Shown: in pieces, positions 37,182-50,253 of the stretch | How the letters are laid out: every line of letters begins with the position of its first letter | Numbering within the stretch: position 1 is the first letter of the stretch | NCBI GenBank assembly: GCA_041695045.1 | Contig: JBGFRR010000128.1 | Span: forward strand, 16,004-80,003 | Reading direction: 5' to 3' | From: Bacteroidota bacterium | GTDB lineage: Bacteria > Bacteroidota > Ignavibacteria > UBA10030 | Length of the DNA: 64,000 nucleotides | Program-made: the position numbers and the translations under genes | Notes under the pieces: model-generated | What the model saw: the letters and a program-made list of their open reading frames with translations, nothing else | Databases searched by the model: none | What the model was told of the DNA's origin: nothing

Positions 37182-37808
37182 TTACTGCATTGCTGCCTGC
37201 ACGTGGGCCAACACCTCTTTGATGGAGCGCTCCCATTGCTCCAGAATGCGGTTGGTGCTGGCGGACGTTTGCTCGACGAAAGCCTCGTCTTTCAGTGTCG
37301 CGAGGTTGATGCGCACGTTCAACGCCGCGCCAATACACGCAGCATGCAACATCGCTGCCGCAACGCCGGCGTCGGAGATTGAGTTGACATTCCCTTTCTT
37401 TGCCACGATCGTCGCGAGCGGCATCGCACGCTCGCAGAGTTGCATGACCCGCAGCGGAACCGTGGCCGCGGCTTTCGTGGCTTCCTGGATTGCAACGCTG
37501 CGCGCGAGCTGCTCCTGGTCGGTATTCTTGGGAAGCGAGAATGCCGTCATCACGCCGTTGAATGCCGTCGTGTCCTCATCAATCAGTACGGTAAACTCGG
37601 TTCGCAACTCCTCGGCTTCCTTCAACACGGCCTCCATTTCCTCCTGAACCTCCGTGTACGTTTTCTTCCCGATCGTCAACCGACACACCATCGCGGTCAG
37701 CGCGGCTCCCAACGCGCCGGCCAGCGCAGCAGCGCTTCCGCCTCCGGGCGCGGCAGAGTTCGAAGCGACTTCGGTCAAGAATCCTTCAATGGTCTTGTCA
37801 ACTAACAT
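37182..37808 (-). CDS. formimidoyltetrahydrofolate cyclodeaminase (FTCD C-terminal-domain homologue)
   Basis: All-helical protein. AAPGGGSAAALAGALGAALTAMVCRLTIGKK is the conserved cyclodeaminase glycine-rich motif. Start at the second Met of the listed ORF (MLVDKTIEGFL). Confidence 0.7.
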   Translation of the reverse strand: MLVDKTIEGFLTEVASNSAAPGGGSAAALAGALGAALTAMVCRLTIGKKTYTEVQEEMEAVLKEAEELRTEFTVLIDEDTTAFNGVMTAFSLPKNTDQEQLARSVAIQEATKAAATVPLRVMQLCERAMPLATIVAKKGNVNSISDAGVAAAMLHAACIGAALNVRINLATLKDEAFVEQTSASTNRILEQWERSIKEVLAHVQAAMQ

Positions 37809-37955
37809 ACGACCTCCAGGGTTGAAGAAGAGAACAAACTTACCACCAAGTCCCGAAGACACGAAGAGAACTGTAGCAATTCCAGAAGAATGCTTCGTGC
37901 AACCTCTGTCTTTGTTCCCTTTGACGGTGAAAGAAACGAGTTTTTCAATACGCTC

Positions 37956-38990
37956 CTAAATCATATACTCGATCACTTTCTTCTTCGGATCGAACGGCTC
38001 AAGTTGGCTGAGTCCAAGCCCATCCATGGCAAGGGTCAGAAGCTCTTTCTCGGAAAGCGAGGTTGTTGTCCCTTTTTTCTCAGCATAAAACTTGCCGGCC
38101 ATGAGGAGCGCTTGCAGCGGTGTAAGACCGACAATCTCGCTGCCGGTTGCGTCGATGCCGAGCGAGCGGGCCTGCTTCTTGACTTCTTCAAATGCGACGT
38201 GGGGCGGTGTGATGTTGAAGTCAACAAGGTTGACCGAAACCTGTGCGATGTTGAATCGCTCCAACAGCACGCCGATGGCCTTCACCGCTTTCAGTGTTCC
38301 GGGAATCTTGACGGTGTTGCCGCGCTCATCCTTTACGGGATTTCCCGCTTCGTCTTTTTGGGGTCGCCCGCTTTCGCGAATCCGCAGGGCAATCTCTTGG
38401 GCCAGCGATGAGTCCGGTGTGTTGAGGTTCACATTGTAAGCGATGAGAAATGTGCGGGCACCGGTAACGGTCGAGCCGGACTTCGCATTGAACTCGGCAG
38501 GACCACAATCGGGTTTCCAGCGTGGATCGCTGAGCTTCTCCGGCAATCCTTCGTATTCACCTTTGCGAATGTTGGCGAGGTTCTTTCGTTCCGGCGTCGT
38601 TGCCGCCGCTTCATAGAGGTAAATGGGGATGCGCAACTCAGAAGCAACGCGCTCGCCAAACTTCCGTGCCAACTGCACACAATCCTCCATCGTCACGCCG
38701 GCGATGGGAACGAAGGGCACAACGTCTGTCGCACCGATCCGCGGGTGCTCGCCTTTGTGTTGCCGCATGTCGATCAGCTCAGAAGCGGTTTGGGTCGCTC
38801 GAAACGCCGCCTCCACAACTGCATCCGGCTCGCCAACGAAGGTCACGACGGTGCGGTTGTAGTCTTTGTCCGGCTCAACATTTAACAGTTTCACGCCGGA
38901 GACCGCGCCGATGCTTGCAGCAATTGCATCGATAATGCTCTGATTCCTTCCTTCACTGAAGTTTGGGACGCATTCAACGATTCGTTGCAT
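37956..38990 (-). CDS. glutamate formimidoyltransferase (FTCD N-terminal-domain homologue)
   Basis: MQRIVECVPNFSEGRNQSIIDAIAASI...EHPRIGATDVVPFVP is the formiminotransferase N-subdomain signature. Start placed at that Met. The listed ORF to 39143 overlaps the upstream gene. Confidence 0.75.
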   Translation of the reverse strand: MQRIVECVPNFSEGRNQSIIDAIAASIGAVSGVKLLNVEPDKDYNRTVVTFVGEPDAVVEAAFRATQTASELIDMRQHKGEHPRIGATDVVPFVPIAGVTMEDCVQLARKFGERVASELRIPIYLYEAAATTPERKNLANIRKGEYEGLPEKLSDPRWKPDCGPAEFNAKSGSTVTGARTFLIAYNVNLNTPDSSLAQEIALRIRESGRPQKDEAGNPVKDERGNTVKIPGTLKAVKAIGVLLERFNIAQVSVNLVDFNITPPHVAFEEVKKQARSLGIDATGSEIVGLTPLQALLMAGKFYAEKKGTTTSLSEKELLTLAMDGLGLSQLEPFDPKKKVIEYMI

Positions 38991-39672
38991 CGTTCTGTAT
39001 GTTTGTCTTGGTGTTCGTAGGGACAGACCGGACGGCTTGCTGAAGCCGGTCGGGCCTAACGGAAGTCTTCGGAATGATGATGGCACCCTGCCTGAAATTT
39101 CCCAACACTTCCGCCTTGCCACGCAAGAACAACCGACCCACAAGCGCGCCGGTGACGGCGTCTAACTCGTCGCCGTTCATCGATGGCTTCAGTCCTTTGA
39201 GGCCCAAACGCTCGAGGCCGTGGCGAAGCCGACCGAGGCCGTCTTGTTTTCGTGCAATGTGCCAAACATCCTGCGCTGCGCCGGGATACATTTCGATGAC
39301 ACGATAGCCCCTCCGACTCAGACGCTTCCGCAGTGCAATACCGCGCACAGTCAGCGAGCGCATGGGGCCCAGCGTGATGGGGAAGAAGCGAATGCCACGC
39401 TCGAACAAGGCGCGGTCACACGGCCGGAAGTGCTCGCCATTGCGGTCGTCAATTGACCTTCGGCCCGGCGGCAAGTGAAGCGGTGCATCGATGGCTACAA
39501 TGTTCGGCGAGTGGCGCGTGATGAAGCTGAGAATCTCTTCATCCGACCTCAGCGTGGCGTACTCGGCGACCGTCATTCCCCGCAGTGCACAGATGCCGGT
39601 GTTGCGTCGCGGGCTGCCGGCGAGGTCGATGCCGACAACGACCGTCGCGTGCCGTTCAGCCTTAGAACTCAA
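38974..39672 (-). CDS. DUF429-like protein (predicted RNase-H-fold)
   Basis: N-terminal VVVGIDLAGSPRRNTGICAL resembles the RuvC/YqgF-like GIDxG start of DUF429 proteins. Start overlaps the hutI stop by about 11 nt; stop overlaps the formiminotransferase start by about 17 nt. Confidence 0.4.
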   Translation of the reverse strand: MSSKAERHATVVVGIDLAGSPRRNTGICALRGMTVAEYATLRSDEEILSFITRHSPNIVAIDAPLHLPPGRRSIDDRNGEHFRPCDRALFERGIRFFPITLGPMRSLTVRGIALRKRLSRRGYRVIEMYPGAAQDVWHIARKQDGLGRLRHGLERLGLKGLKPSMNGDELDAVTGALVGRLFLRGKAEVLGNFRQGAIIIPKTSVRPDRLQQAVRSVPTNTKTNIQNDATNR

Positions 39673-40906
39673 GAATCACTCCCCCCTTGATCACCATCGC
39701 TACGTGATTCATGCCAAAGTGGTAGGCCAAGTAGCGATAATTGGGGATTCGATACAGGATCACATCGGCTTCCTTGCCGGCCTCGACGCTTCCAACACGA
39801 TTTTCCATCTTCAGCGCAGCGGCGGCGTTCAACGTGCATGCGGTCATTGCTTCTTCCGGTGTCATCTTCATCTGTGTGCAGGCGATGGTCATCATCAGCG
39901 GGATGGAGAATGACATGCACGAGCCGGGGTTGAAGTCCGTCGCCAGTGCGACGGGAACGCCGGCTTCGATGAGCTTCCGTGCCGGTGCATACCGATGATT
40001 GAGGAAAAACGAGACCCCCGGCAAGAGGAGAGCGACAACGCCGGCTTCTCTCAGCTTCGGGATCGTTTCCTCGCCGATGTGTTCAAGGTGGTCGGCGGAC
40101 ACGGCCCCGAGTTCTGCGGCAAGCTCAGAGCCGCCGGAGGGGGTCAGCTCTTCGGCGTGGAGCTTGAGCTCGAAGCCGAGTGAGCGTGCCTGCTGAAGGA
40201 TGCGTCTCGAATCGTTGACGGAAAAATAGCCTTGCTCACAGAAGACATCGCAGAATCGCGCAAGTTGGCGCTTGGCAATGTAAGGAAGCATTCTCTCGCA
40301 TACAAGGTCGATGTAGCGGGTTGGGTCGTTCTTGTGCTCGGGCGGGATCACGTGCGCGCCGAGGAACGTTGGTACGACCGTCATGAAATGGTCGTCGGCA
40401 AGCTCGTTGATGGCTTCGAGCATCTTGATTTCGGAGTCGGGGTCTAAGCCGTAGCCTGATTTGATCTCAACGGTCGTCGTTCCGTGCTGCAACATCGCAT
40501 CGAGTCGCCGCGATGCCAACTTCTTCAGCTCCTTTTTTGTCGCAGCGCGTGTTGCCCGAACGGTGGACATGATCCCTCCGCCCTGCTCGGCAATCGCTTG
40601 GTAACTCTTGCCCGCAGTTCGCAATGCAAACTCGTCGTCTCTGCTTCCCGCAAAGACGAGGTGTGTGTGGGCATCGACGAATCCGGGCAGTGCAACATAT
40701 TCTGCGGCATTCACTACGGTTGCGTTTTTATCGAGCGTCCGGTCAAACTCATCCGCCCGTCCCACCCACGCAATGGTCTTGCCCTCAATCAGCACACTCG
40801 CATCCTCAACAATGCCGAGGTCGGCCATGGCTTCGCCTGTCTTGAACCGCGCCCCGTTGGCGCGGACGGTCACAAGTTGCCGGATATGTTCAAGCAGCAG
40901 TTGCAT
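39662..40906 (-). CDS. hutI: imidazolonepropionase
   Basis: LPGFVDAHTHLVFAGSRDDEFALRTAG...SYQAIAEQGGGI amidohydrolase metal site. Start at Met25 of the listed ORF (MQLLLEHIRQLVT). Confidence 0.85.
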   Translation of the reverse strand: MQLLLEHIRQLVTVRANGARFKTGEAMADLGIVEDASVLIEGKTIAWVGRADEFDRTLDKNATVVNAAEYVALPGFVDAHTHLVFAGSRDDEFALRTAGKSYQAIAEQGGGIMSTVRATRAATKKELKKLASRRLDAMLQHGTTTVEIKSGYGLDPDSEIKMLEAINELADDHFMTVVPTFLGAHVIPPEHKNDPTRYIDLVCERMLPYIAKRQLARFCDVFCEQGYFSVNDSRRILQQARSLGFELKLHAEELTPSGGSELAAELGAVSADHLEHIGEETIPKLREAGVVALLLPGVSFFLNHRYAPARKLIEAGVPVALATDFNPGSCMSFSIPLMMTIACTQMKMTPEEAMTACTLNAAAALKMENRVGSVEAGKEADVILYRIPNYRYLAYHFGMNHVAMVIKGGVILEF

Positions 40907-41831
40907 TGGGTGAACGCTTTCTCGCTTCGATGAAAACGTACGCCCCCTTCGAGAGACCCAGAGCCATGACGGCGTCATCCATCTTCCGGAGGAATCGTGC
41001 TGCGCGGTACCGTGCCTCTCCCGAAAGCTTCAGCTTTGCCGCTAAGTAATACCAGAAGGGGAGGAACGTGAATGTTTCAACGATATCGAAGCGCGCCGTG
41101 ATTTCCCGAAGAATCGAGTCTTGGGAAATCTCCTCAAACGGCGACTCGGAATGAAGCGTGTTGCGGTTGGAGTGCTTCAGTGCCGCCCGTTTGGACTCCT
41201 CGGTAGCCAAAAAAGCCCTGAGCCGATGACGCAGTTTCCACTTCTCCCGGTACGGCTGGAACGTTGGAAGGAGAGCATACAGTGCGGCAGCCAACAGCTT
41301 GCGAATGCGTTTCATGCCGATGAAGTCGAGTACCAACAAGCGTCCGTGCGACTTCAGTGTGCGCTCAGCCTGCACCAGGACGTGATCGAGTCGGACGAGA
41401 TGATGTAGAGCATCGTGAGCGACAACGGCATCGTATTGTTGTTCGGGGAGTGTTGAGACGTTCAGGTCGCCAACCTTAAATGTTGGAGAGTGAGGCAACG
41501 GTGTTCTGCCGATTCGTTCGCGAGCGCGGTCGATGCGCTCCGGACTTAGGTCAATGCCGTGGACGTGCAGGCCGCGCTGAGCAAGCTGAAGTGCAAGATG
41601 TCCCTCGCCGCAGCCTAATTCGAGCACAGTAGGGCCGGCGGCAACGATGCGGTCAAGGAAATGACGGAACTCGCGACCGAAGAAGATTTCAAACAGCTGC
41701 AGGTCGTGCCAGAGTTGCGGGTTGAGTGGGTCGGCGTGGACGCTGCCCCAGTGCCGCGCTTCCTGTTGGATGAGTGTCTCGTACGTGCTCACGCGGCCAG
41801 TCGTCGCGGTTCCCAGAGTGCCAGTGTGCAT
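40890..41831 (-). CDS. class I SAM-dependent methyltransferase
   Basis: VLELGCGEGHLALQLAQRGLHVHGIDLSPERI (motif I GxGxG). VLDF motif. Stop overlaps the hutI start; start overlaps the VOC gene's 3' end. Confidence 0.7.
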   Translation of the reverse strand: MHTGTLGTATTGRVSTYETLIQQEARHWGSVHADPLNPQLWHDLQLFEIFFGREFRHFLDRIVAAGPTVLELGCGEGHLALQLAQRGLHVHGIDLSPERIDRARERIGRTPLPHSPTFKVGDLNVSTLPEQQYDAVVAHDALHHLVRLDHVLVQAERTLKSHGRLLVLDFIGMKRIRKLLAAALYALLPTFQPYREKWKLRHRLRAFLATEESKRAALKHSNRNTLHSESPFEEISQDSILREITARFDIVETFTFLPFWYYLAAKLKLSGEARYRAARFLRKMDDAVMALGLSKGAYVFIEARKRSPNATAA

Positions 41832-42151
41832 CCATCCGGCGTGGCAAAGTAGGCAAACCAGCCGAGGTTCGGGATGGCGGTTTTTGGCTGGACGACCTTG
41901 CCGCGGGCTCTTCGAATCTGCTTTAACTTCTCGTCAATACTCACCACCTCGATGTGCACGAAGACGCTCGGTTTCTTCGGGATGGACTTAACTTTGTATA
42001 ACAGGCCGCCGGGTTCGTGTCCGGTTTCGATTATCATCATGTCTTTGTAGCCGACCAGCGGCTCGAACTTCCAGTTGAAGAGCTTTCCGAAAAACGCCTG
42101 GGCTTTGTTGAGGTCGGTGGTAGGAATCTCGATGAACGCGAAGTGATACAT
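41789..42151 (-). CDS. VOC-family (glyoxalase/bleomycin-resistance fold) protein
   Basis: MYHFAFIEIPTTDLNKAQAFFGKLFNWKF...GGLLYKV...HIEVVSIDEKLKQIRRARGKV is the typical betaalphabetabetabeta VOC module. 120 aa from the internal Met of the listed ORF. Confidence 0.6.
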   Translation of the reverse strand: MYHFAFIEIPTTDLNKAQAFFGKLFNWKFEPLVGYKDMMIIETGHEPGGLLYKVKSIPKKPSVFVHIEVVSIDEKLKQIRRARGKVVQPKTAIPNLGWFAYFATPDGCTLALWEPRRLAA

Positions 42152-42218
42152 GGTTGCCCACCTCCGGCGGGTGGCGAGGATGAATGCGTAAGCAAGAAAC
42201 GAAGAATCGCCTAAAGAA

Positions 42219-42410
42219 TCAAGGTTGCAGCGGTGGCGTCGGTTCGTAGCCGGGGCAAGAAAGAACAGGAAGGCGGGGATACTTGACAAATCGCGGGTCG
42301 ACATCGGCAAGCGTGCAACGATAAAACATGCTGCCGCGCGAGGTCGTGATCACCTGAGCGTGACGACAGTTCTCACACAGACCGATGGATGGATTCTGTG
42401 GTGTCGGCAT
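42219..42410 (-). CDS. small Cys-containing protein, possible zinc ribbon (C-x2-C ... C ... C); hypothetical
   Basis: MPTPQNPSIGLCENCRHAQVITTSRGSMFYRCTLADVDPRFVKYPRLPVLSCPGYE, 63 aa. Sits 16 nt after the hutU stop in the same array. Could be non-coding. Confidence 0.25.
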   Translation of the reverse strand: MPTPQNPSIGLCENCRHAQVITTSRGSMFYRCTLADVDPRFVKYPRLPVLSCPGYEPTPPLQP

Positions 42411-42426
42411 GAAGAGTTTTTCCTTC

Positions 42427-44085
42427 TTACAACATCGGAATCGTGATATCCCATCGTCGTGCATTCTCGATGGCGTGTTCATATCCTGCATCTGCGTGGC
42501 GGACGATGCCCATGCCGGGGTCGTACGTCAGTACGCGCTGTACACGCGCCGCAGCTTCTTTCGACCCGTCACACACAACCACCATTCCCGCATGGATCGA
42601 AAGTCCGATACCCACACCGCCGCCGTGGTGCACGCTCACCCAGCTTGCGCCGCCCACGGCGTTGAGAAGGGCGTTGAGGATTGGCCAGTCGGCGATGGCG
42701 TCGCTGCCGTCCTGCATCTGTTCTGTTTCGCGGTTTGGTGAAGCGACGCTCCCGCAGTCGAGATGGTCGCGGCCGATCACGATGGGCGCCTTCAGTTCGC
42801 CGTGCGCGACCATGTCGTTGAAAATCTTCCCCATCGTTGCCCGCTCACCGTACCCGAGCCAACAGATGCGCGCGGGGAGTCCCTGGAATGCGACCTGCTT
42901 TTGCGCCTTCTCAATCCAATTGCAAAGCTGCTTGTTCTCTGGGAAAGTCTCCATCACGGCGCGATCAGTGCGATAAATGTCGTCCGGGTCTCCGGAGAGA
43001 GCGGCCCACCGGAATGGCCCCTTGCCGTCGCAGAACAGCGGACGGATGAATTCGGGTACGAAGCCCGGAATGTCAAACGCGTTCTTCGCACCGTTCGTAT
43101 GCGCCTCGCCGCGGATGTTGTTACCGTAGTCGAACACGACCGCTCCTTTTCGTTGAAGTCGAAGGAGTCCCTTGACGTGCTCAACAATCGATTTCCGTGC
43201 GAGCGTAACGTACTTCTTCGGGTTCTTTGTTCGTAACTCCAACGCTTTTGCGTATGGTAAACCCGCCGGCACGTAGCCGTTCAGTGTATCGTGTGCCGAT
43301 GTTTGGTCGGTGACGACATCGGCAATGAATGTGCCCGCGGCGATGCGCGGGATGATATCGGCGGCATTCGCAAGCAACCCAACGGACAACGGCCGCTTCG
43401 TTTCCGTTGCTTCCTTGATCAGGCGGATGGCCTCGTCGAAGTCATCCGTCATCCGGTCGAGATACCGCGTGGCGAGGCGTTTTTCGATGCGTGAGCGGTC
43501 GACTTCGACGACGAGACACGCTGCGCCGTTCATCGTTGCTGCGAGCGGTTGCGCACCGCCCATCCCGCCGAGTCCTGCTGTGAGCACAAAGCGGCCGCTG
43601 AGATTTCCGCCGAAGTACTTCGCGGCGCAGGCGGCGAATGTTTCGTACGTGCCTTGAAGGATTCCCTGCGTGCCGATGTAGATCCAGCTTCCTGCCGTCA
43701 TTTGTCCGTACATGGTGAGGCCGAGCGCTTCGAGGCGGCGGAATTCGTCCCACGTCGCCCACTGCGGCACGAGCATCGCATTGCTGATGAGCACACGCGG
43801 AGCATCCGGGTATGTTTTGAAAACACCGACCGGTTTTCCGGATTGCACGAGCAGTGTTTCATCGTTTTCCAGGTAGCGCAGACTTCGCACGATGGCCTCA
43901 TAGCATTCCCAGTTGCGCGCTGCCTTGCCGGTGCCTCCGTAGACGATCAGTTCGTTCGGCTTCTCGGCAACGTCAGGGTCGAGGTTGTTCATGAGCATTC
44001 TGAGAGCAGCTTCCTGGAGCCAGCTCTTACAGGATCGTTCCGTGCCGCGTGGTGCGCGGATGATGCGGGTGGGTTTATGAGGCAT
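42427..44085 (-). CDS. hutU: urocanate hydratase
   Basis: 552 aa. [10 protein letters not shown]...[15 protein letters not shown]...[24 protein letters not shown]-binding urocanase motifs. Confidence 0.9.
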
Positions 44086-44323
44086 GAGAACATCTCGCTG
44101 TGGAAATTCGAAATACGAAACTCGAAATACGAAATAAATTCAATGCTTCATTTGCTTCAATGTAGTTTGCACCAACCGATCCCGCAGCACGAATAAGTTG
44201 TTTGCCATACTCGAAGTTCGCGGCGTTGTTCGGAAGCTTTATGACAAACTCTCCCGCCCTCCGGGCAAACGCTTCTGTTCGCTCTTCAAGGTCGTAACGT
44301 TTTGGATTTTGAGAGTTTGACAT
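44075..44323 (-). pseudogene. four-helix-bundle protein (TIGR02436-like) remnant, C-terminally replaced by repeat-derived sequence
   Basis: MSNSQNPKRYDLEERTEAFARRAGEFVIKLPNNAANFEYGKQLIRAAGSVGANYIEANEAL matches the first two-thirds of the family. The remaining 21 codons ([13 protein letters not shown]...) are encoded by the GAAAT/CGTATTTCG repeat block, and the frame ends at the hutU start. Confidence 0.45.
44093..44135. repeat. tandem CGAAATACGAAA-type short repeats
   Basis: ggaaattcGAAATACGAAActcGAAATACGAAAtaaattc. Related to the motifs at 44320-44366 and 45857-45932. Confidence 0.4.
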
Positions 44324-44366
44324 GTTTCGAATTTGTTTAGGATTTCGAAATTCGGATTTCGTGTTT
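44320..44366. repeat. TTTCGAA/CGGATTTCG short-repeat block
   Basis: atgTTTCGAAtttgtttaggATTTCGAAATTCGGATTTCGtgtttattt shares the CGGATTTCG / CGAAAT core with the other two loci. Confidence 0.4.
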
Positions 44367-44841
44367 ATTTGAAAGCGATTGCTGCAATCTCCACAATTGC
44401 TTTCCGTGGGAGATTCGAGACCTCGACGGTCGTCCGTGCGGGATAGCGTCCCTCCGGGAAATATCCGCCGTAGATTAAATTCATCTTCGGGAAGTCGTTG
44501 ATGTCTTTCAGAAACACATTGCATTGCACGACATGGCTCGAGTCGTATCCGGCTTGACGGAGAATGGCCATGAGGTTATCCAACGCCTGTCGGGTTTGGC
44601 TCTCGATGTCGTCTCCCGCTAATTGAACGGTTTCGGGATTCAGCCCGATCTGTCCCGCAACGAAGAGAAAGTTCCCTACCTTCACGGCGGGGCTGTAGGG
44701 TCCGATCACGCGCGCATCGGTAACGAACGTGCGCTCGCCGACGCGGAGCAGTTCCTCCTGAATCATCCTTCGAATGTCCTCATCGCTGTTCCCACACCCG
44801 ACGACAAGCATCGCAATGACAACTGTTACGAGAGCTTTCAT
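44365..44841 (-). CDS. RidA/YjgF-family (reactive-intermediate deaminase) protein carrying an N-terminal lipoprotein signal peptide
   Basis: MKALVTVVIAMLVVGC lipobox, then ...VKVGNFLFVAGQIGLNPETVQLAGDDIESQTRQALDNLMAILRQAG... and C-terminal ...RTTVEVSNLPRKAIVEIAAIAFK RidA signature. Confidence 0.75.
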   Translation of the reverse strand: MKALVTVVIAMLVVGCGNSDEDIRRMIQEELLRVGERTFVTDARVIGPYSPAVKVGNFLFVAGQIGLNPETVQLAGDDIESQTRQALDNLMAILRQAGYDSSHVVQCNVFLKDINDFPKMNLIYGGYFPEGRYPARTTVEVSNLPRKAIVEIAAIAFK

Positions 44842-44860: not shown

Positions 44861-45343
44861 CTACAATTTGTACCCTATCGTGCGGAGCAGTTCTTTCCTG
44901 TGTTTGATGTCCTCATCCGTCTCAACGCCCTTGGATTGGAATCCATCTACCACACCGACGATGCCGCGTCCTTGTTCAGTCTCGGCGACGAGCACTTCCG
45001 TCGGATTCGCCGTTGCGCAGTAGATGTGGCAAACCTCCGGCACGTTCTTGATCGCATTCAGGATATTGACCGGGAAACCATTCTCCATAAAGAGAATGAA
45101 ACAATGCCCGCACGCGACTGCGAGGGCGTTCTTTTTGGCAAGGTCAACAAGGTTCTCGTCGTTACCCACCCAGCGAACAAGACATGGGCCGGATGCTTCG
45201 CAAAAGGCAAGGCCAAAGCGCATCTGTGGATTGGTTTGCACCACTGCCTCGTAGATGTCCTCAACCGTTTTGATGAAATGACTCTGGCCGAGGATGAAGT
45301 TCGTCGCTTCGGGTTTTTCAATCTTGACAGCGCTGATGTTCAT
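44861..45343 (-). CDS. PF04008-like ('adenosine-specific kinase' family) protein
   Basis: [34 protein letters not shown]...[11 protein letters not shown] resembles the archaeal/bacterial PF04008 family. Family assignment is from memory of the motif, not a search. Confidence 0.45.
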
Positions 45344-45363
45344 GGTATCTCCTGTACTGGTTG

Positions 45364-45852
45364 TCATGATCCAATGGCGTCGAAGAGATTCACCGGCAGC
45401 AGCCACGTGAGCGTTCCACTGCCGCGTTCAAGTGGTGTTGGCGACTCGATGCATGCAAGGCTTGCCTTTTTTATCTCAATGCGCGCGTTCGTGCTTTGGG
45501 CAACAAGGATGGAAGCCGTCGAGCTGAGGTGTGGCTCGTGGCCGACGAGGAGAACGGTCGTCGGAGGGGAGGAATTCAACAGGGCGAGCACGTTGGCGGG
45601 ATTACTGTCCGGCACGAGTGCTTCCGACACAATCGGTGTTGGCAGGCCAAGGGCTTGCTGGATCGCGCCCGCCATTTGCTGTGCACGCAGCAGTGGGCTT
45701 GTGATGATGCGTTCGATGGCGATGCGTTTTGCCTTGAGGAAGGTTGCTACCTGGTGTGCTTGGGTCAGGCCGAGCGGTGTGAGAGGGCGGTCGCGGTCGT
45801 GGAGAGAAGGATGCTGAACCGCATCACCGTGTCGAAGCAGAACGAGGAGCAT
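45364..45852 (-). CDS. sixA: phosphohistidine phosphatase SixA (histidine-phosphatase superfamily)
   Basis: [11 protein letters not shown] (RHG catalytic motif), [20 protein letters not shown]. Start at the internal Met MLLVLLRHG. Confidence 0.7.
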
Positions 45853-45856
45853 GTTG

Positions 45857-45932
45857 ATTGCGGATTTCGGAATGCGGATTGTGGAATGATTTTTTAATCC
45901 GAAATCCGCAATCTGCAACCCGAAATCGGATC
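45857..45932. repeat. near-perfect 14 nt inverted repeat (attgcggatttcgg ... ccgaaatccgcaat) plus a trailing partial copy, in the RR-sixA spacer
   Basis: The two arms are separated by about 28 nt (aatgcggattgtggaatgattttttaat). ...cccgaaatcggatc follows. Same CGGATTTCG/CGAAATCCG core as at 44.1 and 44.3 kb. Confidence 0.45.
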
Positions 45933-47304
45933 ACGATTTGGTAAGGTTGTATTGCTGAATCTTGGTATAGAGTGTTTTGAGACTAATACCGAGCACTTTT
46001 GCCGCAATACTTTTGTTCCAGTGCAGGTTGTTCAGGACGGCCTGGATATGCGCTTTTTCGACCTCGCGAATCGACACCGAGCTGCCGACCAACGAGCCGC
46101 CGTCGTGATGCTGCTGTTCGAACATCGGTCGGACGCCGAGCGGGAGCGCGAGGTCTTCGGGGCGGATGATATGATCGCGGCAGAGGATTGCGGCTCGTTC
46201 GATGACGTTCTCGAGTTCCCGCACGTTGCCGGGCCAATCGTATTGTGTGAGGATGTCGAGCGCTTTGGGGTCGATGCGCTTTGGTTCGCCCGCGCGGAAG
46301 CGGTTCTTGAGAAAGTAATGAACCAACAGCGGAATATCCTCCTTGCGCTCGCGGAGCGGCGGCAGGCTCAGCGTGATGACATTAAGCCGGTATATCAGAT
46401 CTTCACGGAATCGTCCTTCGGCGACCTCATGCCGCAAGTCCTTGTTGGTTGCCGAGATGATGCGGACGTCGGCTTTCATCGTTTTGTTTGCGCCCACGCG
46501 GCGATATTCGCCCGTCTGCAGGAATCGCAACAATTTCGGCTGCACAACAAGGCTGATCTCGCCGACCTCATCAAGAAAGAGCGTGCCGCCGTGAGCGATC
46601 TCCACCAGACCCGGCTTCGTGGCAACGGCGTCCGTAAACGCACCTTTCTCGTGGCCGAAGAGTTCGCTTTCGATCAGTGTTTCCGGGATCGAGGCGCAAT
46701 TGAGCGCGACGAACGGCTGGTCGTTCCGGAGACTGTTCCGATGAATGAAGTGAGCGATAAGCTCTTTGCCGGTGCCGCTTGCCCCTTGAATCAGAACGGA
46801 GGAGTCGGTTGGCGCAACCTTGGAGCAGAGCTTGAGAACCTCCAGGAACGCCTTACTGCTTCCCACGATGTCGGCGGAGAGTGCGTGGCGCTGGAGTTCA
46901 GTCTTCAGTGCCGCGTTCTCGATCATCAGCCGCTTGCGTTCCAGTGCACGGTCGATCACGGTGAGAATTTCGTCGGCGGAAACCGGCTTGTTCACATAGC
47001 TGTAGGCGCCGAGCTGCATGCACTCGACAGCAAGCTTGATATCGGACACACCGGTTACCATGATCACCGGCATATCCAGAAAATGGTCTTTGATGTATTT
47101 CAGCACTTCAAGACCGTCGACGCGAGGCATCTTCAGGTCAAGGAGCACAAGGTCGAACGATGTCGATTGGAGTTTGTTGATAGCGGCGATACCGTCGGAC
47201 GCGGTGGTGACGCTGTAGTGCTTCTGGCTCAACAAACTCGCGATGATCTCGAGGAAGGTTTCTTCGTCGTCAACAACCAGTATCGAGATCGTCGGGCGGG
47301 ACAT
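45931..47304 (-). CDS. sigma-54-dependent response regulator (REC - AAA+ sigma-54 activator - Fis-type HTH), NtrC family
   Basis: ILVVDDEETFLEII..D REC. GASGTGKELIAHFIHRNS Walker A. GHEKGAFTDAV (GAFTGA). C-terminal HTH. Confidence 0.85.
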   Translation of the reverse strand: MSRPTISILVVDDEETFLEIIASLLSQKHYSVTTASDGIAAINKLQSTSFDLVLLDLKMPRVDGLEVLKYIKDHFLDMPVIMVTGVSDIKLAVECMQLGAYSYVNKPVSADEILTVIDRALERKRLMIENAALKTELQRHALSADIVGSSKAFLEVLKLCSKVAPTDSSVLIQGASGTGKELIAHFIHRNSLRNDQPFVALNCASIPETLIESELFGHEKGAFTDAVATKPGLVEIAHGGTLFLDEVGEISLVVQPKLLRFLQTGEYRRVGANKTMKADVRIISATNKDLRHEVAEGRFREDLIYRLNVITLSLPPLRERKEDIPLLVHYFLKNRFRAGEPKRIDPKALDILTQYDWPGNVRELENVIERAAILCRDHIIRPEDLALPLGVRPMFEQQHHDGGSLVGSSVSIREVEKAHIQAVLNNLHWNKSIAAKVLGISLKTLYTKIQQYNLTKS

Positions 47305-47322: not shown

Positions 47323-48429
47323 TTACTTGACCAGTAGAGCGAAGAAAAAGGTGGTACCTTTTCCGGGTTCGGACTCAACCCAGATTTTTCCGTTATGCGC
47401 TTCGATGATGCGCTGACAGATAATGAGACCCAGGCCGCTTGTTGTCTTGTTGTCTTTTGTCGTCGACACAACATTCCGATAGCGGTCGAAAATGAACGGC
47501 AGTTGCTCCTTGGGAATTCCTTTGCCGGTATTGAACACGGACACAAGCACGAAATCCTGCGGTGGCTGGCCCTCTTCGACGACGAGGGCGACTGTGCGCG
47601 TCTGTGTGGCAATGGCTCCTTCGGCCGGTGTATACTTTAACGCGTTGCTGAGGAAGCTCTGAACGACTTGCTCGATCTTCTGTGCGTCGAATTCGATCGG
47701 TGGTAAATCGGGGTCCGCATGGACTTCAAGGGCTATCCTACTTGATTGCGCCGGAACGCGAAACTCCTGCACAATTTTTCCGACGACATCGGCAATGTTC
47801 CCGATCCCCTTGTTCAGACGAACACGTCCTCCCTCAAGCTTCGTGAGATCCATCATATCGTTGAGGAGGGAGATGACCTTATCGATGGACGTCATCATGT
47901 ACCCCATGAGTTCCTTCTGATGGTCGCCCAACGGTCCGGCCATCCCTTTCATGAGATAACCGATGCTCTGTTTTAACCCGGAGATAGGGTTGTGGAGGTC
48001 GTAGAGCAGTCGCGCAGTGTGTTCAGCCTGAAGCTGGCGGATGCGTTCCTCGGCGTCACGCTTCTTGATGAGGGACCGGAGTTGGGGCACAAGCTGGTCA
48101 AGATCGACAGGCTTGGTGAGGTACTCCTTTGCCCCTAACTTCATTGCCTCCACCGCCATGCTCACGTCGCTCATGCCGGTCATCATCACCACTTCGGTCG
48201 GGTTGGAATTCTTCTTGATGAACCGCAGCACTTCGAGTCCGTTTGCGCCGGGCATCTTGATATCCAGCAAGGCGATGTCGAAATCCTTTCCCTGGACCTT
48301 CTTAATCGCTTCGAGTCCGTCGGCTGCTTGTTCGACCTGAAAACCCTCGTCGCCGAGCCACGCAGCGATGGTGGTTCGCAAGGCTTCTTCGTCGTCGGCA
48401 ATGAGAACGTTGATGGGCTCTTGGTCCAT
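47323..48429 (-). CDS. hybrid histidine kinase lacking a sensor domain (N-terminal REC - HisKA - HATPase_c)
   Basis: MDQEPINVLIADDEEALRTTIAAWL...DIALLDIKMPGANGLEV REC. HTARLLYDLHNPISGL H-box. C-terminal GLGLIICQRIIEAHNGKIWVESEPGKGTTFFF. The listed ORF is extended about 800 nt upstream through hutH on the opposite strand; that extension is rejected. Confidence 0.75.
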   Translation of the reverse strand: MDQEPINVLIADDEEALRTTIAAWLGDEGFQVEQAADGLEAIKKVQGKDFDIALLDIKMPGANGLEVLRFIKKNSNPTEVVMMTGMSDVSMAVEAMKLGAKEYLTKPVDLDQLVPQLRSLIKKRDAEERIRQLQAEHTARLLYDLHNPISGLKQSIGYLMKGMAGPLGDHQKELMGYMMTSIDKVISLLNDMMDLTKLEGGRVRLNKGIGNIADVVGKIVQEFRVPAQSSRIALEVHADPDLPPIEFDAQKIEQVVQSFLSNALKYTPAEGAIATQTRTVALVVEEGQPPQDFVLVSVFNTGKGIPKEQLPFIFDRYRNVVSTTKDNKTTSGLGLIICQRIIEAHNGKIWVESEPGKGTTFFFALLVK

Positions 48430-48636
48430 AGAGCAATACTTTGTGGAGGGTGTGGGCGTTTGCTGAATCTCGAAAACGATGGTGCGATCATGAAGGAAAC
48501 CGGACCGAACAGTGTTACGTGCAAACGCGGGGAAATGATAACGAGATTCGCCCGAAAAGTCAATGCGCATGCGTGCAATTCTGTTGAATTTCTTCACTTG
48601 CTCTGCTACATTAGTGTATATTCTTACCTCCTTACT

Positions 48637-50253
48637 ATGGCTCACTACGCACTCGACGGTAACTCCCTTACTCTCGAATTGCTTCAGCATGTTGTCTATC
48701 ATGGCACGCCGATTGCACTTTCTCCGCAGGCACAGCGTCGGCTGCGCGCTTCGCGTCGGCTTGTGGAGCGTTGGGTTCACACCGGCGAGACGGTCTACGG
48801 TGTGACCACAGGATTTGGAGAATTCAGTAACGTTCGCATCAGCACACGCGATAATGAAAAACTTCAGGAAAACCTGATCCGAAGCCATGCGGCAGGCGCA
48901 GGCGAGCCGCTGCCTCCGGAGGTTGTCCGTGCAATGATGGTGCTGCGTGTGAACGCCCTTGCGAAGGGCTATTCCGGCGTACGAACGGAAACGGTTCAAC
49001 AACTGGTGAAGATGGTGAATGCCGGTGTCGTTCCCGTGATTCCGTCGCAGGGTTCTGTGGGAGCCAGTGGCGACCTTGTGCAGCTCGCGCATCTCGTGCT
49101 GTCGATGATGGGGAAGGGAAGAGTGTGGGAGTGGGATGGTAGCAGAGGGGCGAGGGAGCAAAGGGGGTGGGGAGATGGGGAGGTGGGAAGCATGAAAACA
49201 GTGAGTGCGTCGGCGGCATTGAAGAAGCATCGGTTGAAGTCGGTACGGCTAACGGCGAAGGAAGGCATCGCGTTAATCAACGGCACGCAGATGATGACGG
49301 CGTACGTTGCTCTCACCGTCTGGCATGCAAAACGGCTCCTGCGTCTTGCCGACATCGCCGCCGGGCTGAGTGTGGAGGCCTTGCGTGGAAGCGACACGCC
49401 GTTCGACGAGCGCATCCACAACCTTCGCCCGTATGCAGGACAGAAAGCCGTGGCAAAGAACCTGCGCCGGCTGATGGAGGGAAGCGAGATTCGAGAATCC
49501 CACCGCTACAATGACCCGCGTGTGCAGGATGCGTACTCGCTGCGATGCGTTCCACAGGTGCACGGTGCTTCGAGAGACGTCGTTGCCTACGTGGAGCATC
49601 TCCTCGCCATCGAGATGAACGCGGCGACCGACAACCCGCTCATCATCCCTGCCCTGACAGGTCGGGGCGTTCATCTTGAGGGGGGCAACTTCCACGGCCA
49701 GCCGATGGCGTTCGCGGCAGACTTTCTTGCCATCGCACTTTCTGAGGTGGCGAACATCTCCGAACGTCGCATCGAACGTCTCGTGAATGGATCCCTGAGC
49801 GGCTTGCCGCGGTTCCTGACGGCAAACGGTGGGTTGAATTCCGGGCTGATGATTGCCCAATACACTGCTGCCTCGATTGTATCGGAAAACAAAGTCCTGT
49901 CGCATCCTGCGAGTGTGGATTCGATTCCCACGTCCGCCAATCAGGAGGATCACAACAGCATGGGCTCGATTGGCGCGCAGAAGGCCTGGCGCGTGCTGCA
50001 GAACGTGCAGCGGGTGATTGCCATTGAACTGCTCTGTGCCGCGCAGGCGTTGGATTTTACCCGCACGATGAACAGCAAGCAACCGATGAAAGCGGGCCGC
50101 GGAACGGAAATCGCCTATCACTTTCTTCGAAAGTACATCAAGCACCTGAATGAGGACCGTGTCCTCCATCCCGATATCCAGACCGCGCTGCGGCTCGTGT
50201 TGGACAACAGCCTTCTACAGGCTGTCGAGCGCGCGATCGACAAGCTTGAGTAG
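48637..50253 (+). CDS. hutH: histidine ammonia-lyase
   Basis: MAHYALDGNSLTLELL... and GSVGASGDLVQLAH (Ala-Ser-Gly MIO-forming triad). About 538 aa. Contains an in-frame G-rich insertion (see findings). Confidence 0.85.
   Translation: MAHYALDGNSLTLELLQHVVYHGTPIALSPQAQRRLRASRRLVERWVHTGETVYGVTTGFGEFSNVRISTRDNEKLQENLIRSHAAGAGEPLPPEVVRAMMVLRVNALAKGYSGVRTETVQQLVKMVNAGVVPVIPSQGSVGASGDLVQLAHLVLSMMGKGRVWEWDGSRGAREQRGWGDGEVGSMKTVSASAALKKHRLKSVRLTAKEGIALINGTQMMTAYVALTVWHAKRLLRLADIAAGLSVEALRGSDTPFDERIHNLRPYAGQKAVAKNLRRLMEGSEIRESHRYNDPRVQDAYSLRCVPQVHGASRDVVAYVEHLLAIEMNAATDNPLIIPALTGRGVHLEGGNFHGQPMAFAADFLAIALSEVANISERRIERLVNGSLSGLPRFLTANGGLNSGLMIAQYTAASIVSENKVLSHPASVDSIPTSANQEDHNSMGSIGAQKAWRVLQNVQRVIAIELLCAAQALDFTRTMNSKQPMKAGRGTEIAYHFLRKYIKHLNEDRVLHPDIQTALRLVLDNSLLQAVERAIDKLE

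Follow-up and report, generated by a model that had tools for sequence, protein, structure and literature searches.

A 64,000-nucleotide stretch of the genome of a Bacteroidota bacterium (Ignavibacteria, UBA10030; assembly GCA_041695045.1, contig JBGFRR010000128.1, positions 16,004 to 80,003), hereafter the window, carries a histidine-utilization (hut) cluster in which three genes with no canonical role in histidine catabolism lie between hutU and hutI on the same strand. They encode a cysteine-rich mini-protein, a VOC (glyoxalase-fold) protein, and a class I methyltransferase (MTase) dependent on S-adenosylmethionine (SAM). Comparison with related loci indicated that the three open reading frames (ORFs) are almost certainly real, conserved operon members, that the extra genes have descended vertically along with the hut cluster throughout a deep lineage, and that the mini-protein and the MTase, which are fused into a single protein in some relatives, probably constitute one functional unit. 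Although textbooks treat histidine catabolism as a closed pathway, this lineage retains additional genes between those for the second and third enzymes. Such a hut cluster, with conserved accessory genes specific to one lineage, is an undescribed variant, in which the connection of the mini-protein with the MTase is of greatest interest. The comparative genomics is solid; tentatively, the three genes may be accessory hut genes whose mini-protein/MTase unit would act on a small molecule.

Organization of the hutU–hutI interval

The tetrahydrofolate (THF)-dependent hut set of the window is complete for HutU, HutI, glutamate formimidoyltransferase, and formiminotetrahydrofolate cyclodeaminase, all encoded on the minus strand between positions 37182 and 44085 (Pfam/NCBIfam), and the three non-canonical genes pointed out between hutU and hutI in a preliminary description of the locus were borne out by ORFs, homologs, and hidden Markov models (HMMs). 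The hutU gene (42427..44085, minus strand) encodes a urocanate hydratase of 552 amino acids (aa) with matches to Pfam Urocanase_N, Urocanase, and Urocanase_C (E values of 1e-62 to 1e-96), is 75–85% identical to the hutU of related loci, and ends in a TAA at 42429–42427. The mini-ORF (42219..42410, minus; 63 aa with four Cys) begins at ATG 42410, exactly 16 nt beyond the hutU stop as previously described, the intervening letters being GAAGGAAAAACTCTTC; its start is preceded by GAAGGA and it ends in a TGA at 42219. Its stop is separated by a 67-nt spacer from the start of the VOC gene (41789..42151, minus; 120 aa, Pfam Glyoxalase), which has a GGAGG 9 nt 5′ of its ATG at 42151 and ends in a TGA at 41789. 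The MTase gene (40890..41792, minus; 300 aa) follows and ends in a TGA at 40892–40890, and hutI (39662..40906, minus) encodes a 414-aa imidazolonepropionase that scored 484 bits against NCBIfam TIGR01224 (cut-off, 298).

The longest MTase ORF begins at ATG 41831, which gives the overlap of about 43 nt with the VOC gene that was originally reported. This overlap is corrected here to a 4-nt GTGA at the VOC stop, with the MTase start most likely at GTG 41792, because 33 homologs begin 3–5 residues before a conserved Tyr, because a 92%-identical homolog (P0011) begins VSTY, and because three relatives (L008, L170, and L171) share the 4-nt VOC/MTase overlap. At the other end of the gene, the reported overlap between the MTase stop and the hutI start was confirmed: it spans 17 nt, as read from the sequence, and the hutI ATG at 40906 was itself confirmed by tblastn, in which the alignments with relatives begin, with a single exception, at the first or second residue of the window HutI. 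Terminator-like or sigma-70-like sites in the cluster did not rise above chance in a scan, and this, along with the tight junctions, makes co-transcription of the three accessory genes with hutU and hutI, as first proposed, the simplest reading and the most likely one. Synthesis of the MTase may moreover be translationally coupled to the VOC protein upstream, through the GTGA, and to HutI downstream, through the 17-nt overlap. No riboswitch or other RNA element was found with Rfam between 36500 and 50000, and no sigma-54 promoter was found upstream of hutU or of the RidA-family gene that precedes it, with matches across the window at chance level.

Conservation and distribution of the accessory genes

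To assess whether the arrangement is shared by related genomes, two sets of loci were assembled. A profile scan of species-representative genomes with the MTase gave 28 ortholog-level loci, which were mapped with the window proteins and HMMs; nearly all were from metagenome-assembled genomes of Ignavibacteriales, Ignavibacteria, or “Bacteroidota,” and three were from Candidatus Eisenbacteria. In 23 of 27 of these MTase-seeded loci, all but L031 and the three from Eisenbacteria, hutI lies directly 3′ of the MTase gene, and 21 of 24 have the mini-ORF upstream of the MTase gene. Gaps between the MTase gene and hutI range from −20 to +52 nt in the relatives, and overlapping stop/start junctions recur. 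As a guard against seeding bias, metagenome contigs were sampled with the window HutI, yielding 17 loci with a lineage-type hutU (75–82% identical) upstream. Every one of these 17 hutI-seeded loci has the mini-ORF or the VOC gene in the hutU–hutI interval: the mini-ORF is present in 14, the VOC gene in nine (usually directly after hutU), an ApbA/PanE gene in six, and the MTase gene in five.

The same sampling also provided an outside comparison, namely 22 loci with a distant hutU (35–37% identity), several of them from human-gut metagenomes, and none of these carries the mini-ORF, VOC, or MTase gene. Those THF-dependent clusters encode the same four catabolic enzymes on one strand, and the HutU, HutI, and FtcD domains of the window are canonical; however, their order is hutU–ftcD–hutI–cyclodeaminase, without the three extra genes (22/22), whereas in the lineage of the window the mini-ORF and/or the VOC gene invariably stand between hutU and hutI, in many cases together with the MTase, ApbA/PanE, or signaling genes, and RidA precedes hutU.

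Within the lineage, the extra gene kept most consistently is the mini-ORF; the MTase gene is restricted to a subset of the lineage and, where it occurs, comes after the mini-ORF. Observed arrangements include hutU–ApbA–mini-ORF–MTase–hutI, hutU–ApbA–mini-ORF–hutI, and hutU–mini-ORF–hutI, and the order mini-ORF–MTase–hutI, seen for example in the Ignavibacterium album locus L022, is kept while the hybrid kinase, ApbA/PanE, VOC, and DUF429 genes come and go. Most relatives have an ApbA/PanE-type 2-oxoacid reductase between hutU and the mini-ORF (L011, L014, L015, L019, L025, L028, L029, and L170), often accompanied by a hybrid sensor kinase of 1,000–1,400 aa (CHASE3–HisKA–HATPase–REC–Hpt in L170); the window has neither between hutU and the mini-ORF, both having been lost or never present. 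In a second layout, seen in seven loci (L104, L107, L118, L120, L122, L031, and L108), hutU is followed by the VOC gene, the mini-ORF, in some cases the MTase gene, a membrane SpoIIE/PP2C phosphatase, a DUF5700 putative zinc peptidase, and hutI.

The three ORFs are not chance ORFs, because the mini-ORF has homologs and belongs to a family, the VOC protein scores with Pfam Glyoxalase, and the MTase has Pfam matches; genomes that share the extra genes have HutI proteins only 55–70% identical. The neighborhood whose conservation the preliminary description proposed to check recurs in the hut loci of relatives, in that both the mini-ORF and the MTase gene are found there. Its treatment of the three genes as one unit is an oversimplification: the mini-ORF is kept most consistently, the MTase is limited to a subset of the lineage, and the VOC gene, patchy in its occurrence, shifts position relative to the mini-ORF.

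The methyltransferase and its fusion to the mini-protein

The clearest tie between the accessory genes is a gene fusion. In L033, L087, and L088/L089, the mini-protein, a linker of 10–25 residues, and the MTase are encoded by one continuous ORF without a stop codon, at loci whose synteny matches that of the window (sigma-54 regulator, His_Phos_1, PF04008, RidA, hutU, the fused gene, hutI, ftcD, and cyclodeaminase). The three fused proteins are only 58–77% identical to one another, and the fusion is therefore old and maintained rather than an assembly error. By the Rosetta-stone argument, the mini-protein and the MTase probably act together, and we consider it likely from these comparisons that they are one functional unit, with the mini-protein perhaps docking on the N-terminal side of the MTase, as two polypeptides in the window and as one fused protein in the sister clade. 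The fusion ties an uncharacterized and highly conserved MTase family to a large family of four-Cys mini-proteins and offers a concrete, testable handle on both. In L017 (976–3744) and L020 (1935–4694), a pair of genes encoding proteins of 534 and 289 aa is inserted between the mini-ORF and the MTase gene; these are the only cases in which the two are split by more than the VOC gene.

Public gene calls are often wrong at this module. Two fused genes (P0123 and P0130) have their start annotated at an internal Met, so that the fusion goes unseen, and the mini-ORF of L170 is left uncalled in the public annotation. Two other apparent fusions were rejected: an MTase–HutI fusion in L009, L019, and L021, where a stop codon is present and the genes are 12–15 nt apart, and two “long” MTases of 391 aa (P0040 and P0058), which are over-extended calls that cross the mini-ORF in another frame.

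The MTase matched four Pfam families, Methyltransf_11 (70.9 bits; cut-off, 21.2), Methyltransf_12 (69.3; 30), Methyltransf_25 (68.5; 27), and Methyltransf_31 (68.3; 27), at E values of about 1e-19, and its AF2 model (pLDDT 95.5) confidently adopts the class I seven-stranded alpha/beta fold. An alignment of 34 sequences contained 46 invariant columns. These include E58, G60, C61, G62, and G64 in the motif LELGCGEG, D81, and D109-L-N111, all of which would be SAM contacts by analogy with other class I enzymes, as well as the basic residues K184, R190, R202, and K253, which would suit an anionic substrate. A grouping of the enzyme with housekeeping rRNA or tRNA methyltransferases would, according to the preliminary description, have counted against its reading, and by HMM the enzyme does not group with them: models for rRNA, tRNA, and ribosomal-protein MTases scored below cut-off (CmoM, 33.3 bits against 366; PrmA, 25.7 against 269 in NCBIfam and 20.2 against 22 in Pfam). 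The same was true of UbiE/UbiG, the name given automatically to homologs by JGI (MenG/UbiE, 38.6 against 158; UbiG, 48.8 against 103; Pfam Ubie_methyltran, 19.6 against 20.1).

The nearest structures are instead mostly small-molecule enzymes, namely SpnF, RebM/AtmM, phosphoethanolamine N-methyltransferases, and GPP/FPP C-methyltransferases. With these and with TleD, about 200 of the 300 MTase residues align (TM ∼0.5, 14–22% identity); however, these enzymes have no counterpart to the conserved N-terminal helical region of the window MTase (EAxHWG...DPxNPQIWHD) or to its lid insert of about 70 residues (…SPFEEISQ…), and their substrates are therefore not transferable to it. The mini-protein/MTase unit most likely methylates a small molecule, and not a nucleic acid.

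The four-cysteine mini-protein

The mini-protein has Cys residues at positions 12, 15, 32, and 52, all invariant, and a near-invariant H17, within the motif GLCxxCxH...RGSxF..C...D.RF.KYPRLPVLSCPGY. Its homologs were 51–61% identical at E values of 1e-14 to 1e-18, and an alignment of 10 sequences had 22 invariant columns, the four Cys included. A profile search of 1.84 billion representatives recovered 2,492 clusters at E ≤1e-3, and the best 150 of these consist of short proteins throughout. By these sequence criteria the mini-protein genuinely belongs to a large family that lacks annotation: it had no Pfam or NCBIfam match and no profile match to a PDB sequence, Pfam searches of 10 members at E up to 5 returned nothing except one stray FYVE_2 match, and a Foldseek search of PDB with its structure model (pLDDT 82) gave no match with E <1. 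It is probably a metal-binding module that uses the four Cys, with zinc the most likely metal, and no DNA- or RNA-binding signature was recognized in it.

Small zinc-binding partners of class I MTases are known from the Trm112 holoenzymes, in which Trm112 activates Trm9, Trm11, Mtq2, and the archaeal Hvo_0019; the mini-protein has no sequence or structural similarity to Trm112 (PF03966) by Pfam to E 5, Foldseek, or PDB search. Indirect evidence for a comparable complex with, and activation of, the MTase comes from the adjacency of the two genes in 21 of 24 loci and from their fusion in L033, L087, L088, and L089. Sugar C-methyltransferases of the TcaB9 type carry an N-terminal four-Cys zinc domain, and their architecture, a small Cys4 module ahead of a class I MTase that acts on small molecules, resembles that of the fused form described here. 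This likeness is one of architecture, with no homology shown and no Pfam match of either the mini-protein or the MTase to the zinc domain; in addition, the Cys4 module of the window lineage is usually encoded by a separate gene and is also found without any MTase, in contrast to the TcaB9 type.

The VOC protein

The VOC protein matched Pfam Glyoxalase over residues 5–110 by a small margin (22.8 bits; cut-off, 20.6) and has six close homologs, named “predicted enzyme related to lactoylglutathione lyase” by JGI; it is similar in size, at 120 aa, to the single-domain VOC proteins of that name. Unlike in VOC metalloenzymes, conservation of the classical set of His/Glu metal ligands is incomplete across 15 hut-linked VOC proteins: E68 is invariant, E8 is replaced in two of the 15, the beta-1 His is absent in the clade of the window, and the last-strand Glu is Gln in most. 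The protein may be a binding protein or a metal-independent enzyme. Its gene is patchy across the lineage and occurs on either side of the mini-ORF, and it may be an older, optional companion of hutU and the mini-ORF.

Possible roles of the accessory genes

Taken as a whole, the cluster would be an Ignavibacteria-type hut cluster of the form RidA, hutU, a variable slot, hutI, in some cases DUF429, ftcD, and cyclodeaminase, and the explanation we favor overall, at a strength just below what could be called probable, is that the slot holds accessory hut genes, with a mini-protein/MTase unit that methylates a small molecule as a side-branch or as damage control. A role in the main route would not be expected. 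The intermediate passed from HutU to HutI, 4-imidazolone-5-propionate, is chemically labile, and our best guess at the substrate would be a carboxylate- or imidazole-bearing by-product arising around that step. A class I MTase that acts on an off-pathway isomer or by-product of a central pathway is known in Tam, the trans-aconitate methyltransferase; Tam is a conceptual analog of the proposed role and a matter of functional speculation, the window MTase being no member of its family (29.7 bits against an NCBIfam cut-off of 320). A hut-specific role is plausible but unproven, and a hut-related substrate for the MTase is a substantial possibility short of one that could be presumed. Still more specifically, a dedicated two-component and sometimes fused methyltransferase for the HutU/HutI step, which would methylate a labile imidazolone-propionate by-product or an inhibitory urocanate isomer, or would use the mini-protein as methyl acceptor or switch, is unlikely. 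If a link to the labile HutU product were true, the locus would offer a new example of a catabolic operon that includes metabolite damage control; if the dedicated two-component MTase were true, it would represent a new accessory branch of histidine catabolism and a first function for a small-protein family of about 2,500 clusters.

Several observations weigh against a role tied to histidine. The MTase orthologs of Candidatus Eisenbacteria, which at 51–55% identity are as similar to the window protein as many from Ignavibacteria, adjoin an SLT transglycosylase gene, and neither a hut gene nor a mini-ORF lies within 10 kb of them. The five mini-ORF homologs from the protein-homolog search whose surroundings were examined all have neighbors unrelated to hut (aldolase/protease, citrate synthase, a pectate-lyase-like gene, a TonB receptor, and an MFS transporter), and the family as a whole is large. 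The hutU–hutI slot of relatives also holds hybrid sensor kinase, PP2C/SpoIIE phosphatase, DUF5700, GNAT, ApbA, and pilus-like genes, and position in the slot is therefore weak evidence of hut function. The MTase is absent between hutU and hutI in 12 of the 17 hutI-seeded loci and is therefore dispensable for the pathway. In the literature, no paper was found that describes an MTase in a hut operon or links an MTase to hutU/hutI, nor was one found that links Ignavibacteria to urocanate.

All but the literature searches would be expected if the genes were operon hitch-hikers, which we regard as the principal alternative and as a serious contender, albeit less than probable. The hutU–hutI slot would then be permissive, and the mini-protein/MTase unit and the VOC protein would have a general, histidine-independent function, such as modification of a common metabolite, lipid, or protein, or stress response or detoxification, and would share the hut transcript by inheritance. 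Were this so, the locus would show that passenger genes can long retain operon junctions that are tight or even overlapping. Yet the mini-ORF and/or the VOC gene occupy the interval in all 17 lineage loci, the MTase gene abuts hutI in 23 of 27 despite turnover of its neighbors, and overlapping junctions with hutI recur across relatives; neutral passengers would not be expected to persist to this extent, even if common descent within a single lineage could account for some of the persistence.

Alternatively, the genes might form a regulatory module, in which the Cys4 mini-protein acts as a metal-thiolate switch or adaptor and the MTase modifies the mini-protein or another protein, tuning hut expression or enzyme activity in concert with the sensor kinase, sigma-54 regulator, and His_Phos_1 phosphatase, or with the PP2C phosphatase of relatives. 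The mini-ORF is the most constant extra gene and stands beside signaling genes (kinase–mini-ORF in L170 and mini-ORF–PP2C in group B), the upstream two-component block is conserved, and a fusion of an enzyme to a Cys4 protein is compatible with a docking or acceptor domain. This proposal is nevertheless improbable: the mini-protein has neither a DNA/RNA-binding signature nor a structural match, the structures nearest to the MTase are mostly small-molecule enzymes, and enzyme–substrate fusions are unusual.

Yet more improbable is the idea favored in the preliminary description, a variant catabolic route adapted to a modified imidazole substrate, which might be a methylated, thiolated, or betaine-type histidine derivative. 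The genes do lie inside the hut cluster, and no gene for histidine ammonia-lyase (hutH) was found in the 64-kb window by a motif search (ASGD, in ORFs of at least 150 aa), so that the entry substrate is unreadable from the window. For a methylated imidazole, however, the idea is chemically backwards, as an MTase adds methyl groups and cannot demethylate; HutU, well conserved across the lineage, and HutI, a TIGR01224 equivalog, both look canonical; HutH-like ORFs lie upstream of RidA–hutU on the opposite strand in some relatives (L012, L027, and L033); and the MTase is missing from the interval in most of the hutI-seeded loci. Finally, a selfish or recently transferred insertion, also suggested earlier, or a set of spurious ORFs has nothing in its favor beyond the non-canonical gene content and appears effectively refuted by the comparative data, given a GC content of 0.53–0.62 across 40800–42450 that is like that of the flanks, no transposase or integrase gene among the ORFs and Pfam annotation of 37182–44841 (flanking repeats were not searched for), no defense-system signature beyond a generic MTase-domain match, and the same genes, with strong protein-level conservation, in dozens of diverged relatives, where they are vertically inherited.

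Flanking genes and additional observations

Downstream of hutI, a gene for a DUF429 protein (38974..39672, minus; 232 aa, Pfam DUF429 34.5 bits) shares 11 nt with the end of hutI and 17 nt with the likely beginning of ftcD; it is an optional member of the operon, carried by only some relatives. The best PADLOC match of its product is the candidate defense family PDC-S44 (62.6 bits), and this and the generic MTase-domain match were the only PADLOC matches, with no defense-system architecture. The gene for glutamate formimidoyltransferase (FtcD N-terminal type; 37956..38990, minus; Pfam FTCD_N and FTCD) probably starts at Met 38990, most homolog alignments beginning at about residue 46–52 of the longest ORF, and the formiminotetrahydrofolate cyclodeaminase gene (37182..37862, minus; Pfam FTCD_C, 233.9 bits) has its true start probably near 37808. 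The one ORF of at least 150 aa in the window that has the ASGD motif, of 641 aa (48328–50253, plus strand), was rejected as hutH, being antisense to the sensor-kinase gene; hutH may be encoded elsewhere in this genome.

Directly upstream of hutU lies the gene for a RidA-family protein (44365..44841, minus; Pfam Ribonuc_L-PSP, 131.8 bits), an adjacency conserved in most loci that reach that far. It is preceded, all on the minus strand, by genes for a PF04008 “adenosine kinase” family protein (44861–45406) and a His_Phos_1 phosphatase (45364–45918), both assigned by Pfam, and by genes for a putative sigma-54 response regulator (45931–47304) and a putative sensor kinase (47323–49230), assigned from synteny and a reading of the translations. 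The order from the response regulator to hutU is the same as that of the window in L087, L088, and L170. A perfect sigma-54 −24/−12 consensus, TGGCACGCCGATTGCA, lies antisense within the sensor-kinase gene (48702–48717, plus strand); it may be fortuitous, because window-wide matches with up to two mismatches are at chance level.

The 280-nt spacer between RidA and hutU, within the region 44075–44524, is low in GC (0.42–0.47). It carries an ORF that matches part of the profile (positions 8–52 of 106; E 9e-4) of the 23S rRNA intervening-sequence protein family and is probably the decayed remnant of a small passenger gene. Unannotated, mutually similar ORFs of about 125 aa occur in two relatives, one following hutU in L007 and the other lying in L129 between the mini-ORF and hutI.

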